DNA of 64,000 nucleotides, taken from NCBI RefSeq assembly GCF_003018255.1, contig NZ_CP027440.1, one strand, 5' to 3'. The DNA is from Escherichia coli (GTDB lineage Bacteria > Pseudomonadota > Gammaproteobacteria > Enterobacterales > Enterobacteriaceae). Below, one piece after another: positions 30,893 to 59,762 of the stretch (position 1 is the stretch's first letter; each line of letters begins with the position of its first letter). The translations under genes were made by a program, and so were the position numbers. The notes beneath the pieces are model-generated. The model was not told the DNA's origin, did no database searches, and worked only from the letters and a program-made list of their open reading frames with translations.

Positions 30893-31771
30893 TTATTCAT
30901 CCAGCTTCGGCTGGGGTGAGTCATCCGGGATTTTGACATGAACCTGAATAATACGCCGACTGTCGGCCATCGCCACTTTGAACTGGTAACCGTCGATGTC
31001 GATGGTTTCGCCACGCGCCGGAAGATGCCCAAATGCCTGCATCACCAGACCACCGATAGTGTCAACCTCTTCATCGCTAAAGTGGGTGCCGAACGCTTCG
31101 TTGAAGTCTTCAATAGAAGCCAGTGCGCGCACGGTCCAGGTATGACGACTCAGCTGACGGAAGTCGATATCATCTTCTTCGTCATACTCGTCTTCAATCT
31201 CACCAACAATCAGTTCCAGGATGTCTTCAATGGTCACCAGACCGGAAACCCCACCGAATTCGTCAATGACGATCGCCATGTGGTAACGCTGAGAGCGAAA
31301 CTCTTTCAGCATCCGGTCTACGCGCTTACTTTCAGGAACGACAACCGCCTGACGTAACACTTTGTCCATGCTGAAGGCTTCAGCATCGCTGCGCATAAAC
31401 GGCAGCAAGTCTTTCGCCATCAGAATCCCTTCAATGTGATCTTTGTCTTCGCTAATCACCGGGAAACGTGAGTGGGCGGACTCGATGATGACATCAAGGC
31501 ATTCGTCCAGCGTCTGGTTGCGTTTCAGGGTAATCATCTGGGAGCGGGGGATCATGATGTCGCGAACGCGTTGGTCTGCGATGTCCATCACCCCTTCGAG
31601 CATATCGCGCGTATCTTCGTCGATAAGGTCGTTCTGCCCGGAATCACGGATCAGCGCCAGCAGTTCGTCACGGTTTTTCGGTTCACCGTGGAAAAGTTGG
31701 CTGAGTAACAGGGAGAAAAATCCCTTCTTGTTGCTTATCGTGTCACTACTGTGTGAATTGTCGTCGCTCAT
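30893..31771 (-). CDS. corC: Mg/Co efflux-associated CBS-domain protein CorC/YbeX (292 aa)
   Basis: ORF track; recognised sequence. Confidence 0.93.
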
Positions 31772-43614: not shown

Positions 43615-43636
43615 TTTGGTGACAAAACTCACAAAA
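43615..43636. promoter_or_regulatory. candidate CRP site in the nagB-nagE divergent control region
   Basis: GGTGA-caaaac-TCACA (43618-43633), 6-nt spacer. Confidence 0.5.
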
Positions 43637-54974: not shown

Positions 54975-56294
54975 TTAACCGTGTTTATTTTTCAGTTCAA
55001 AGCGTGGTGAGACCAGACCATACAGTGTCCAACCGAGGAAGGTCACGATGGAACCGTATAGCATGGCTTCTTCCCCGGATGAGTACAGCGCATAAAAGCT
55101 GTACATCGCGCCAACAAAAGCAACAAAGTTTGCAACTTTCGCTTTTGAGGGGGGCACATTAGCGACCTTCTGAATAATGACTAATGCCGCCATTGACAGA
55201 ATATACGGAATGATATTGGTCACCACGGCCAGGTTAACCAGCACGTTGAACTGACTGTTCAGCGACGGGCTAATGGTCATCAGTGATAATCCGCTCTGGA
55301 TGATGACAATGGTCAGCATTCCCTGTACTGGTGCATCGACTTTGCTCACACGGGAGAAAATTTTCGGGAAGTACCCTTCATCGGCAGAAGATTTAAACAC
55401 CTGGGCAATGGTGAACTGCCAGCCAAGCAGCGAACCGCAGCAGGACATCACCATCAGCGCCATAATGACTTTACCCACTTCCGGCGTGAACATCTGCGCG
55501 AAGGCCAGACCAAATGGTGCCGTTGAATTTGCCAGCTCCATATTTGGCACAATCCCGGCAATCACGTTGGTGGAGACGATATAAATCACCGCCGCACCTA
55601 ACGTACCGCCAAGAACTGCAATCGGCACGTTACGTTCCGGGTTTTCAACTACTTCGGCGTTGGCACAGGCTGACTCCAGACCGAGGAAAGCCCACAACGT
55701 CATGGCGATGGAAGAACCTACAGCGCTAAAGAACGGCACATGGTGCGGGTTCCATGAGTTAGCGTATAGCGTCGGGCTAAACCAGAACCAGCCGATAATG
55801 CACAGACCGACGACCGGAATAATGACCCCCCACACAGTAATGCTACTGATTTGCCCGGTAATGCGCGCACCACCAAAGTTAGCCACGGTACAAATCCACA
55901 GCACTCCGATGGTCGCAAGACCAATCTGCACTGGCGACAAACTCGCGCCGAGCAGTTCGGTGCCGTAACCAACCGCCGAAATAGCAATCGCGACGTTAGC
56001 AATCAGCAGCGAGACACCGTAGGTGTAGTTCGCCATAAAGTTCCCGGATTTACCGAAAGCATACTCCGCATAACCGCCCATACCGCCTGATTTACGGCTG
56101 AACATACCGCATTTTGCGAATGCCCATGCCAGTGCCATTGAGCCTACGGCTGTCACCAGCCAGGAGATAATTGAGATTGTCCCAACTTCGGCAAGCTTTG
56201 TCGGCAGCATGATGATACCGGAGCCCATCATGTTGACCATCGTCAGTATGGTTAACTGAACGACGCCCATCTTATTCGATTTAGCCTGACTCAT
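54975..56294 (-). CDS. potE: putrescine-ornithine antiporter PotE (439 aa)
   Basis: ORF track; APC-family transporter. Confidence 0.95.
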   Translation of the reverse strand: MSQAKSNKMGVVQLTILTMVNMMGSGIIMLPTKLAEVGTISIISWLVTAVGSMALAWAFAKCGMFSRKSGGMGGYAEYAFGKSGNFMANYTYGVSLLIANVAIAISAVGYGTELLGASLSPVQIGLATIGVLWICTVANFGGARITGQISSITVWGVIIPVVGLCIIGWFWFSPTLYANSWNPHHVPFFSAVGSSIAMTLWAFLGLESACANAEVVENPERNVPIAVLGGTLGAAVIYIVSTNVIAGIVPNMELANSTAPFGLAFAQMFTPEVGKVIMALMVMSCCGSLLGWQFTIAQVFKSSADEGYFPKIFSRVSKVDAPVQGMLTIVIIQSGLSLMTISPSLNSQFNVLVNLAVVTNIIPYILSMAALVIIQKVANVPPSKAKVANFVAFVGAMYSFYALYSSGEEAMLYGSIVTFLGWTLYGLVSPRFELKNKHG

Positions 56295-58489
56295 AATTTT
56301 TCCCCTTTCAACAGGGTGCTTTGCGCATCACGAGGCTTGATGACATAGCACCAAACTTGCTTACGACCATCATGTTCTTCGATATAGACACCCTGCAGCT
56401 CTGGTGCAAAACCTGGCAGCAGGTTGATCCCTTCTTCCAGAGCGCTGAAGTAACGCAGAACAGCACCACCCCAGATTTCACCCGGAACAACACACAGCAC
56501 ACCCGGAGGATAAGGAAGCGCACCTTCGGCAGCGATACGGCCTTCTGCATCCGGCAGACGAACCAGCTCCACTTCATCGCGTAAATAGGCGTAGTTGGCT
56601 TCTTGTGGATTCATGCTTACGCGTGGGAAGTGTTCCTTACGGAACATCTCTTTTTGCAGTTGTTTCACGTTGTGACGGGCATACAAATCATGCATTTCCT
56701 GACACAACTGACGCAGGGTATAACCGGTGTAGCGCTCTTCATGCTGTTTGTAGATGGAAGGCAGTACTTCTGATAATGGCGCGTCGGACTCAAGCAGTTT
56801 TTCGAAGCGTACCAGCAGAGCAACAAGTTGCTGAAGTTTGGCCATATCTTCTGCCGGAGTCAGCAGAAAGAGGATGGAGTTAAGATCGCATTTTTCCGGC
56901 ACTACGCCATTTTCGCGCAGGAAGTTAGCAAGAATCGTCGCGGGTACACCGAACGCTTCATATTCGCCGTTACGTGCATCAATACCTGGGGTTGTCAGCA
57001 ACAGTTTGCACGGATCGACAAAGTATTGATTCTCTGCATAGCCTTCAAAAGAATGCCAGTGCTCACCTGGTACAAACTGGAAGAAGCGCAGATCAACCGC
57101 AATTTGCGCCGTTTCATACGACTGCCAGGGTTTACCATCCACCAGTTCAGGTACGAATGGACGAATATGCTGACAGTTATCGAGGATTAGTTTGCGGGCA
57201 TTAATGCCATTTACCACACAATCCATCCACATATTACGACCGCTGACACCTTCATGCATTTTGGCGTTGATATCCAGTGCGGCAAACAGCGGATAGAACG
57301 GGCTGGTGGAGGCATGCATCATAAAGGCGTTGTTCATGCGTTTGTGCGGTACATAACGCTGTTGCCCTTTGATATGGCTGTCTTTTTTATGGATTTGTGA
57401 AGTCTGGGAAAAACCAGCCTGCTGTTTATGCACAGATTGCGTAACCAGAATACCCGGATCGTTCTCATTAAGATCCAGCAACAGTGGTGAACAGTCCGCC
57501 ATCATCGGGATAAACTGCTCATAGCCGACCCATGCGGAGTCAAAGAGGATGTAGTCACACAGATGACCAATTTTATCCACCACCTGACGGGCGTTATAAA
57601 TCGTACCGTCGTAAGTGCCTAGCTGAATAACGGCGAGGCGGAAAGGACGAGCCTCTTTTGCCCGCTGCGGTGCGAATTCCGCGATCAGTTCACGCAGGTA
57701 ACTTTCTTCAAAACAGTGAGCGTCAATACCACCGATAAAACCATACGGGTTACGTGCGGTTTCCAGATAAACCGGTGTCGCGCCAGCCTGTAGCAACGCT
57801 CCGTGGTGGTTAGATTTGTGGTTATTGCGGTCAAACAGCACCAGATCACCCGGTGTCAGCAGGGCGTTTAAAACCACTTTGTTAGAAGATGAAGTGCCAT
57901 TTAAAACGAAGTATGTTTTATCGGCATTAAACACTTTTGCCGCATGTTGCTGTGCAATGCATGGCGCGCCTTCGTGAATCAGCAGATCGCCCATCGCTAC
58001 GTCGGCGTTGCACAAGTCAGCACGGAACAGCGCCTCACCAAAGTATTCCACAAACTGATTCCCCGCGGGATGGCGACGGAAAAATTCGCCGCCCTGATGA
58101 CCGGGGCAATCAAACGCGCTGTTACCCTGATTGACATAATCGACCAGTGCGCGGAAGAAGGGCGGGCGCAGTTGCGTTTCATAATGGCTGGCTGCGGTTT
58201 CTAACTGACGACCATAAAATTCTCGTCGCGATTCGCAATTCTCAAAGACACCCGAAATACGGGGCAAATACTCTGCGGGTACACGTTCTTGATTTTCAGT
58301 AGCAATAAATACCGGGATGCCATAACCCGTGGCATCGATTTCATCGAGTTTTCCGCGTGTAACATCGTTGAGCGATAAAACTATTGCCGCCACATCGATA
58401 TTACTGTTTTCATTAATATAGATACATTCTCGCTGCGTGGTAAAACAGTCCGGGCAAGAATCACTAACCGCAATTTTTAATTTTGACAT
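56291..58489 (-). CDS. speF: inducible ornithine decarboxylase SpeF (732 aa)
   Basis: Track ORF is N-extended; known start MSKLKIAVSDSCPDCF at 58489. Confidence 0.95.
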   Translation of the reverse strand: MSKLKIAVSDSCPDCFTTQRECIYINENSNIDVAAIVLSLNDVTRGKLDEIDATGYGIPVFIATENQERVPAEYLPRISGVFENCESRREFYGRQLETAASHYETQLRPPFFRALVDYVNQGNSAFDCPGHQGGEFFRRHPAGNQFVEYFGEALFRADLCNADVAMGDLLIHEGAPCIAQQHAAKVFNADKTYFVLNGTSSSNKVVLNALLTPGDLVLFDRNNHKSNHHGALLQAGATPVYLETARNPYGFIGGIDAHCFEESYLRELIAEFAPQRAKEARPFRLAVIQLGTYDGTIYNARQVVDKIGHLCDYILFDSAWVGYEQFIPMMADCSPLLLDLNENDPGILVTQSVHKQQAGFSQTSQIHKKDSHIKGQQRYVPHKRMNNAFMMHASTSPFYPLFAALDINAKMHEGVSGRNMWMDCVVNGINARKLILDNCQHIRPFVPELVDGKPWQSYETAQIAVDLRFFQFVPGEHWHSFEGYAENQYFVDPCKLLLTTPGIDARNGEYEAFGVPATILANFLRENGVVPEKCDLNSILFLLTPAEDMAKLQQLVALLVRFEKLLESDAPLSEVLPSIYKQHEERYTGYTLRQLCQEMHDLYARHNVKQLQKEMFRKEHFPRVSMNPQEANYAYLRDEVELVRLPDAEGRIAAEGALPYPPGVLCVVPGEIWGGAVLRYFSALEEGINLLPGFAPELQGVYIEEHDGRKQVWCYVIKPRDAQSTLLKGEKL

Positions 58490-58746
58490 TTTCCATCTCT
58501 TTATTTTGGGTAATAGCAGGTCCTCAATTTCTCGAATGAGAAATCGATCGTGCCGGAAAAAAAGCAAAGTTACCCCGCTGATAAATTAATCAGAAGTTTG
58601 CTTTTTTCAGAATGCAGAAACCCTTATCAGTCCGGTGGCTGATAATACAAGGGTTAACAGAGAATGAGCACTGCGGAATACAGGCATATGCCTGTAATAC
58701 AGAGAGTCAGGAAGACCTGTACGCTGAAGTGCCCTTAGTCGGTAGA

Positions 58747-58851
58747 CTAACGGGCATTGAAGAAGTGAAAGTCGAAGCTATTGCGATGAGCAAACTTCAT
58801 AATATGAGTTGTCCGCCTTATATGGGGCATAGTGCGGCTGTTATTTTCCAT
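58747..58851 (-). CDS. speFL: SpeFL, 34-codon ornithine-sensing leader peptide of speF
   Basis: Translation MENNSRTMPHIRRTTHIMKFAHRNSFDFHFFNAR; SD AGGAAAGG about 8 nt upstream; 257-nt leader before speF; not in the ORF track (below its length cutoff). Confidence 0.8.
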   Translation of the reverse strand: MENNSRTMPHIRRTTHIMKFAHRNSFDFHFFNAR

Positions 58852-59019
58852 TTAATTTACCTTTCCTGATGTGAATGAAGGTGAAGGTATTCTATCCAGG
58901 AAATACGGTTGAACTGTGAAGGTGATCAATAAAAAATGATCAATCTTAATTTATTTAATGATGAGCTTTTTACTCAGTAATATAAAATATTGAATTGTTA
59001 TTTTTGTGTGTTGTTTAAG

Positions 59020-59049
59020 ATAAAAAGCCGTATTTATTATTACGGCTTT
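59020..59049 (-). terminator. intrinsic terminator downstream of kdpE
   Basis: aaagccgta (59024-59032) / tacggcttt (59041-49), U-rich tract on the minus strand. Confidence 0.65.
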
Positions 59050-59084
59050 AATTAATAAAAGGCAGGATGTATTGAAATTAATAT

Positions 59085-59762
59085 TCAAAGCATAAACCGA
59101 TACCCAATACCGGTTTCAGTAATGAAATGGCGAGGCCGGGCCGGGTCCTGTTCCAGTTTTTGTCGCAGATGCCCCATATAAATACGCAAATAATGACTGT
59201 GTTCGACCGCGTTTGGCCCCCACACCTGGTTAAGGAGCTGGCGCTGGGTGAGCACTTTTCCCGCATTATTAAGCAACACTGCCAGCAGGCGGAACTCAAT
59301 CGGGGTGAGATGCACCTCTTCCTCGCCCCGATGGATCACACGAGCTGCTAAATCGACGGTAACATCGGAAAATTTCACCAGCGGATCGGGCGCGGCGGTG
59401 GCGGAGTGGCGACGTAAAGCGACGCGCAGACGGGCCTGCAATTCGCCAATGCCAAACGGCTTACTCAGATAATCATCCGCTCCGGCATCCAGCGCGGCGA
59501 TTTTGTCGCTCTCTTCGCTACGTGCGGAAAGCACAATCACCGGCACCGCGCTCCACTGGCGCAGGTCGCGGATAAACTCAATCCCATCACCATCGGGCAG
59601 GCCGAGATCGAGAATAATCAAATCTGGCTTACGGGTAGCCGCTTCCAGCAAGCCGCGTTGCAGCGTTTCGGCCTCAAAGACGCGCATACCGTCGCCTTCC
59701 AGCGCCGTGCGCAGAAAGCGACGAATAGCCTGTTCATCTTCAACAATCAGAACGTTTGTCAC
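59085..59762 (-). CDS. kdpE: response regulator KdpE (225 aa)
   Basis: ORF track; receiver domain [10 protein letters not shown]. Confidence 0.96.
   Translation of the reverse strand: MTNVLIVEDEQAIRRFLRTALEGDGMRVFEAETLQRGLLEAATRKPDLIILDLGLPDGDGIEFIRDLRQWSAVPVIVLSARSEESDKIAALDAGADDYLSKPFGIGELQARLRVALRRHSATAAPDPLVKFSDVTVDLAARVIHRGEEEVHLTPIEFRLLAVLLNNAGKVLTQRQLLNQVWGPNAVEHSHYLRIYMGHLRQKLEQDPARPRHFITETGIGYRFML

Follow-up and report, generated by a model that had tools for sequence, protein, structure and literature searches.

The promoter-proximal copy of an 8-bp direct repeat upstream of the speFL-speF-potE operon of Escherichia coli appears to be half of a Class II activator site, most likely one for cAMP–CRP, a reading that we hold to be probable if by no means secure. 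The window in which it lies is the whole stretch of E. coli DNA that was analysed, 64,000 nucleotides in length. A preliminary description had rightly placed the repeat within the speFL-speF-potE promoter and had suggested that its two copies might bind an acid- or anaerobiosis-responsive regulator. To our knowledge, speF-potE is the least understood of the inducible amino acid decarboxylase systems for acid resistance. Its control after transcription start, by way of Rho, RNases and the SpeFL leader peptide, is known in detail. A CRP-type Class II site found from Escherichia to Yersinia and Proteus offers a concrete hypothesis for what drives speF-potE transcription, and one that is cheap to test; the 8-bp repeat as a unit would be the wrong target for mutagenesis.

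The gene speF lies downstream of speFL on the minus strand, upstream of speFL thus meaning higher window coordinates. The kdpE-speF intergenic region is 100% identical to that of strain 200164 and 98.3% identical to that of K-12. Its features, in window coordinates, are as follows.

59085–59762, minus strand: kdpE, as found in the E. coli window.
59024–59049, minus strand: intrinsic terminator hairpin of kdpE, the upstream limit of the promoter region.
58937–58944, minus strand: distal repeat copy, ATTGATCA, at −62 to −55, with GATC at 58938–58941; only its TGATC core is conserved.
58931–58936, minus strand: T6 tract between the copies, at −54 to −49, flanking the CRP-type site (column identity 0.73).
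58923–58930, minus strand: proximal repeat copy, reading ATTGATCA along the gene strand and forming the promoter-distal half-site of the palindrome, with GATC at 58924–58927.
58915–58930, minus strand (as a 22-mer, 58912–58933): CRP-family 16-mer TGTGAAGGTGATCAAT, on the gene strand ATTGATCACCTTCACA, with a CRP matrix score of 12.2 bits.
58889–58894, minus strand: −10 hexamer TAGAAT (column identity 0.97), which is TAAAAT in most genera.
58882, minus strand: putative +1, an A placed by homology with Salmonella, 31 nt ahead of the speFL ATG.
58747–58851, minus strand: speFL leader-peptide gene (34 amino acids, MENNSRTMPHIRRTTHIMKFAHRNSFDFHFFNAR), the first gene of the transcript.

In Salmonella, primer extension gave a single start site with the AUG of orf34 (speFL) at +32, and the promoter is on in aerobic LB and insensitive to ornithine or arginine (PMC6386406). 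The −10 hexamer, TAGAAT in E. coli and TAAAAT in Salmonella, stands 37 nt from the speFL ATG in both the window and S. arizonae, and from this identical spacing together with the Salmonella start we infer that E. coli transcription begins at 58882. At spacers of 16–18 bp upstream of the hexamer, no more than 0–1 of the 6 positions match TTGACA, and scanning the region for consensus promoters returned no sigma-70 promoter, which fits activator dependence without locating the promoter. TTGATC was considered as the −35 element of alternative promoters on either strand and was rejected, there being no usable −10 hexamer to go with it. No dedicated regulator gene adjoins the operon, its upstream neighbour being kdpE in Enterobacteriaceae and unrelated genes elsewhere, and no Rfam family matches within 58300–59150.

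Three observations concern the locus outside its promoter. The speFL-speF leader contains, at 58563–58579 (minus strand), a terminator-like hairpin that leads into a run of seven T and stands about 75 nt upstream of the speF ATG; for the Salmonella leader, a Rho-independent terminator was reported absent (PMC6386406). E. coli KL53 carries an IS1 element and a DUF2625 gene downstream of kdpE, at the position that speFL-speF-potE holds in the window (locus L003, 4086–5474). Residue 19 of SpeFL (58795–58797 in the window) is Lys in Edaphovirga and in Escherichia (E. albertii as well as the two E. coli haplotypes) and Met in the remaining sampled genera (HIMKF versus HIMMF; loci L004–L052 and L084).

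Both exact copies of TGATCAAT were verified on the plus strand at 58923–58930 and 58937–58944, 14 bp apart and 72–93 bp before the speFL ATG; read on the gene strand they give ATTGATCA-TTTTTT-ATTGATCA. TGATCA being palindromic, the copies can be read just as well as an inverted repeat, TGATCA-N8-TGATCA. The 8-mer occurs three times in the 64-kb window against 2.86 expected. Exact direct repeats of 8 bp or more, with offsets of 8–30 bp, number 42 in the window versus 19 in Markov-1 simulations, and at least one such repeat turns up in 18% of simulated 233-bp regions at 26% G+C (Markov-1). TGATC-N9-TGATC is found at one locus in the window, with 0.13 expected. As a repeat, then, the TGATCAAT pair is no more than chance. 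The view of the pair as a functional unit was not borne out: its frequency is at chance level, it is not found in the other common E. coli haplotype, its distal GATC is absent from E. albertii and E. coli E69, and its distal columns have an identity of 0.80 versus 0.96–0.99 for the CRP half-sites. Nor does the pair resemble an operator of the OmpR/PhoB type, with a conserved pair at a spacing of 10–11 bp: the copies are 14 bp apart (13 bp in R. ornithinolytica), and the distal one is lost in several close relatives.

The arrangement TGTGA-aggtga-TCAAT, which the preliminary description had pointed out as overlapping the first copy, is indeed found at 58915–58930, and it is this CRP-like element that emerges as the key feature, being a high-scoring CRP-type site, in a putative Class II position, that is conserved across Enterobacterales. 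For scoring we used a CRP matrix trained on 150 CRP boxes taken from Shimada et al. 2011 (genomic SELEX table, PMC3105977), which are motif-selected and therefore yield approximate scores, and an FNR matrix trained on the 63 sites that Myers et al. 2013 associated with ChIP-seq (PMC3688515). The proposal to check the arrangement against CRP and FNR matrices thus gave a divided answer, with 12.2 bits in support of CRP and a poor 4.2 bits for FNR. The CRP score of the 16-mer ranks third of some 64,000 positions in the window and falls at the 60th percentile of the 150 SELEX boxes (median 11.1 bits); the known nagB/nagE CRP site at 43618–43633 (GGTGACAAAACTCACA), a positive control that is itself part of the training set, scores 12.7 bits. 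Besides nagB/nagE, one match to the CRP matrix in the window outscores the speF 16-mer, at 31577–31592 (TGCGATGTCCATCACC, 12.9 bits).

Set against the TGTGA-N6-TCACA cores, ATTGA-TCACCT-TCACA agrees at three of five plus five of five positions, the promoter-proximal half being a perfect TCACA and the promoter-distal half reading TTGA in place of GTGA. The TGA core within the proximal repeat copy has a column identity of 0.99 among 28 Enterobacteriaceae. From the end of the 16-mer to the −10 hexamer is 20 nt, and its centre is at about −40.5 if +1 is 58882, a start placed by homology. A palindrome 20 bp upstream of TAGAAT with no −35 element would correspond to the architecture of a Class II activator-dependent promoter, where a dimer bound to the palindrome would overlap the −35 region and recruit RNA polymerase directly.

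We compared the region across Enterobacterales by searching one genome per species with SpeF as the query, which gave 80 loci, 52 of them, from Escherichia to Shewanella, with speFL (found by motif) upstream. Upstream of speFL, the best CRP match within 200 nt (10.3–16.8 bits) ends exactly 20 nt before TAnnnT in 47 of 48 Enterobacterales, and in shuffled controls at least 10 bits is reached in 2.8%, and 10 bits together with the 20-nt rule in 0.15%. Columns with at least 90% identity across the 48 sequences, which include Escherichia, Hafnia, Serratia, Yersinia and Proteus, are those of the palindrome (TGA and TCAC) and the −10 hexamer. Within the 28 Enterobacteriaceae, column identity amounts to 0.96–0.99 for the CRP half-sites and 0.97 for the −10 hexamer, with 0.67–0.69 in neighbouring non-coding sequence. 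This pattern is a strong phylogenetic footprint of what, judged by its sequence, would be a Class II activator site. Motif conservation in enterobacterial speF promoters had been named at the outset as the test that could refute the proposed site; the CRP-like palindrome is conserved there and the 8-mer repeat is not. Decarboxylase paralogue loci without speFL reach 10 bits in one of 22 cases, and that locus has the same promoter. An ornithine decarboxylase paralogue of Escherichia sp. ESNIH1, 80% identical to SpeF, is preceded by TTTTTATTGATCAACCTCACGG, 20 nt and TAAAAT (locus L073, 1850–2003); it is without the speFL leader peptide and has a leader of just ~100 nt.

The distal copy has a different history. 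Of the 28 Enterobacteriaceae, 22 have GATC here, and the distal TGATC columns have a mean identity of 0.80 versus a background of 0.67–0.69. The distal GATC is missing from E. albertii, E. coli E69, Pluralibacter, C. freundii, Cedecea and one Enterobacter, and from every more distant genus sampled (Hafnia, Serratia, Yersinia, Proteus and others), although these genera keep the promoter. The distal copy holds no CRP site, its best CRP score being −2.8 bits. A second site there, the weak FNR-like TTAAGATTGATCAT (7.9 bits), was rejected: it is not conserved, and its centre at −60.5 is only 20 bp away from that of the proximal site. The E. coli speF region (56291–59084) exists as two deep haplotypes (loci L084–L086 and L005). 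Among 5426 complete E. coli genomes, 5125 contain speF-coding DNA, which is 90–95% identical in 2611 of them, and only 1706 genomes have the kdpE-speFL intergenic region of the K-12/window type. In the other haplotype, examined in ST131, TUM18781 and strain 112, this region is about 45 bp longer and largely different; the haplotype reads TATGATCGTTTTTTGTTGATCTTCTTCACAG, with the GATC pair kept at 14 bp and the 8-mer identity lost. Outside the K-12-like haplotype, that is, in the other common E. coli haplotype and in other genera, the copies share TGATC only, and the 8-bp identity is, on the sequences compared, a coincidence of the K-12-like haplotype.

Immediately beyond the CRP footprint on its upstream side, the distal copy would occupy the place expected for the alpha C-terminal domain of RNA polymerase or for an accessory factor. 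Its TGATC may be a minor element, whether for docking of the alpha C-terminal domain, as an accessory-factor site or as a Dam target, and may equally be slowly decaying sequence. Farther upstream of the distal GATC, at about −63 to −100 from the speFL start site, a conserved block ATATGCATAA-N-CGACTAATTATTTCTGA was observed (loci L006–L034; in L010 at about 1400–1440). It is present in Citrobacter, Salmonella, Kosakonia, Enterobacter, Yokenella, Mangrovibacter and Cedecea and has diverged in the window haplotype. ArgR, ArcA, Fis and NsrR were considered as readers of the block and discarded, their resemblance by eye being weak.

The assignment of the palindrome to cAMP–CRP is favoured by its perfect TCACA proximal half and by the CRP-type G found there, at the position that tells CRP from FNR sites, in 47 of 48 orthologues, this half never reading TCAA in any of the 48. 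The activity of the Salmonella promoter in aerobic LB likewise fits CRP and not FNR. Counting against CRP is the promoter-distal half, which has the FNR-type T in 24 of the 48 orthologues versus 14% of the CRP training half-sites. Also, the SpeF-dependent growth and survival phenotypes of Salmonella were obtained in glucose media under anoxia (PMC3143133), and phenotypes with glucose would not be expected of a promoter strictly dependent on cAMP. No peak at the speF promoter is given in the genomic SELEX table for CRP, where the 'kdpE' entry is located inside kdpD at 723360 (PMC3105977), and speF is absent from the portion of the CRP ChIP-exo supplements covered here (PMC5957442) and from the supplements of a Salmonella crp study. 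Published ChIP data for CRP and FNR come from minimal media at neutral pH. In the tables of Myers et al., the interval 719.8–720.4 kb has no H-NS or FNR peak and none among the sigma-70 peaks listed, and speF/potE is not in the list of operons whose expression differs when aerobic and anaerobic cultures in glucose minimal medium are compared (PMC3688515); both absences would be consistent with a promoter silent on glucose. The same palindrome could instead be an FNR site or a CRP/FNR hybrid at about −40.5, with FNR supplying the anaerobic induction of speF-potE and the G-to-T change adapting the promoter-distal half to recognition by FNR. In the window, as in 23 of 48 orthologues, the promoter-distal TTGAT matches the FNR half-site perfectly, the position agrees with that of FNR-activated promoters, 19 of 23 of which have their site at −41.5 ± 4 (PMC3688515), and SpeF is of benefit under anoxia with glucose present (PMC3143133). 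Scores within the FNR training range are reached in Proteus (17.5 bits), Mangrovibacter and Shimwellia (14.5 bits each) and Kluyvera (14.1 bits), and overlapping CRP/FNR sites have been reported at guaB, ptsH and uxaB (Myers et al. 2013). Yet the 4.2 bits that TTGAT-CACC-TTCAC obtains is below every one of the 63 ChIP-seq FNR sites (minimum 11.8 bits), and the promoter-proximal half contributes −3 to −5 FNR bits in Escherichia, Salmonella and Citrobacter and is TCAA in 0 of 48. The site is also missing from the ChIP-seq peaks for FNR, the predicted sites and the peaks seen in the hns/stpA mutant only, the peak data covering glucose minimal medium at neutral pH; speF and potE stand outside the aerobic-versus-anaerobic operon list for glucose minimal medium; and the Salmonella promoter works in aerobic LB (PMC6386406). 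We regard FNR, alone or shared with CRP, as an unlikely occupant. With this poor FNR fit and the negative FNR lists, nothing was found that links the element to acid or anaerobic sensing, and the original idea of a site for an acid/anaerobic regulator finds no support here. A broader scheme, in which a conserved asymmetric CRP/FNR hybrid together with the flanking TGATC would integrate carbon (through CRP), oxygen (through FNR) and a third input on the GATC pair, which may be an acid-responsive factor or Dam methylation, seems to us speculative and improbable; if true, it would be the missing transcriptional logic of ornithine-dependent acid resistance.

Other explanations centre on the GATC pair itself. 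TGATC-N9-TGATC might be one operator of a separate regulator, possibly acid- or anaerobiosis-responsive, that modulates the CRP-type site by overlap with its promoter-distal half. Of 28 Enterobacteriaceae, 22 retain the 14-bp pair, as do the two E. coli haplotypes; the distal TGATC forms a local conservation peak (0.80 versus ~0.68) at the edge of the larger conserved upstream block; and the literature searched contains no established promoter-level regulator of speF, weak NtrC binding having been called the first potential direct link (PMC5217608). However, the proximal GATC is already accounted for by GTGATC in the CRP consensus, the distal one is lost in six Enterobacteriaceae and in all more distant genera sampled, the spacing changes to 13 bp in R. 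ornithinolytica, and a spacing of 14 bp would place the copies on different faces of the helix, which argues against a single operator. We find such an operator improbable, and we know of no direct-repeat or palindromic motif, among those compared, that the GATC pair fits. Less probable still is that the two GATC act as Dam targets, with methylation state or protection by the activator tuning the promoter. Here the two sites (58924–58927 and 58938–58941) do lie within and beside the activator site, the pair is conserved in Dam-positive Enterobacteriaceae, and CRP-bound GATC sites are among the under-methylated sites of E. coli; against this, no paper was found on speF and GATC methylation, the more distant genera sampled are without the distal GATC, and a GATC within a CRP site is what the CRP consensus would give anyway. 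Least of all do we believe that neither copy is functional and that the AT-rich intergenic region holds a chance short repeat. Although the chance estimate of 0.18 and the lack of enrichment of the 8-mer would allow this, and the distal copy may be a product of chance, no non-coding columns of the region are more conserved from Escherichia to Proteus than those that hold the proximal copy, which contradicts chance for that copy.

The literature searched (curation in RegulonDB and EcoCyc falling outside its scope) contained no transcription factor site at the speFL promoter, and combining speF with CRP, FNR, cAMP, Dam or GATC brought up no promoter-bound regulator besides weak NtrC, described in 2017 (PMC5217608). 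In Haemophilus, speF is activated by ArcA, and in Shewanella speF expression falls in an arcA mutant, with no ArcA motif listed for speF. ArcA was nevertheless rejected as a reader of the 14-bp repeat and the upstream block, which by eye match TGTTA repeats spaced by 11 bp poorly, and ArgR, IHF, Fis, NsrR and LysR-type proteins (T-N11-A) gave no convincing match to block or repeat when their consensus sequences were compared by eye. Class II CRP-family sites are elements of a common sort, and the candidate at this promoter is apparently undocumented.

Among known systems, the Dam-sensitive clusters of pap and agn43 likewise have GATC inside or beside a transcription-factor site; unlike these, speFL has two GATC only, one of which comes from the CRP consensus, and resembles them in sequence. 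With Class II FNR promoters (TTGAT-N4-ATCAA at −41.5 ± 4), the speFL promoter would share the position of the site; it shares a perfect TTGAT distal half and the anoxic expression of its operon, and differs in that its proximal half, TTCAC, scores against FNR. The hybrid CRP/FNR sites of guaB, ptsH and uxaB likewise have features of both consensus sequences in one palindrome, whereas the asymmetry at speFL appears to be systematic, with the proximal half of CRP type in 47 of 48 and the distal half of FNR type in 24 of 48 orthologues. Compared with Class II cAMP–CRP promoters such as galP1 and melR, with their site centred at −41.5, the speFL distal half has T for G, the CRP site is a predicted one that is absent from the SELEX and ChIP-exo lists examined, and the speF-potE operon is known for acid and anaerobic induction rather than catabolite control. 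What speFL would have in common with these promoters is the two-fold symmetric site over the −35 region, the lack of a usable −35 element, a good −10 hexamer, a site centre at about −40.5 and a score within the SELEX-derived CRP range.
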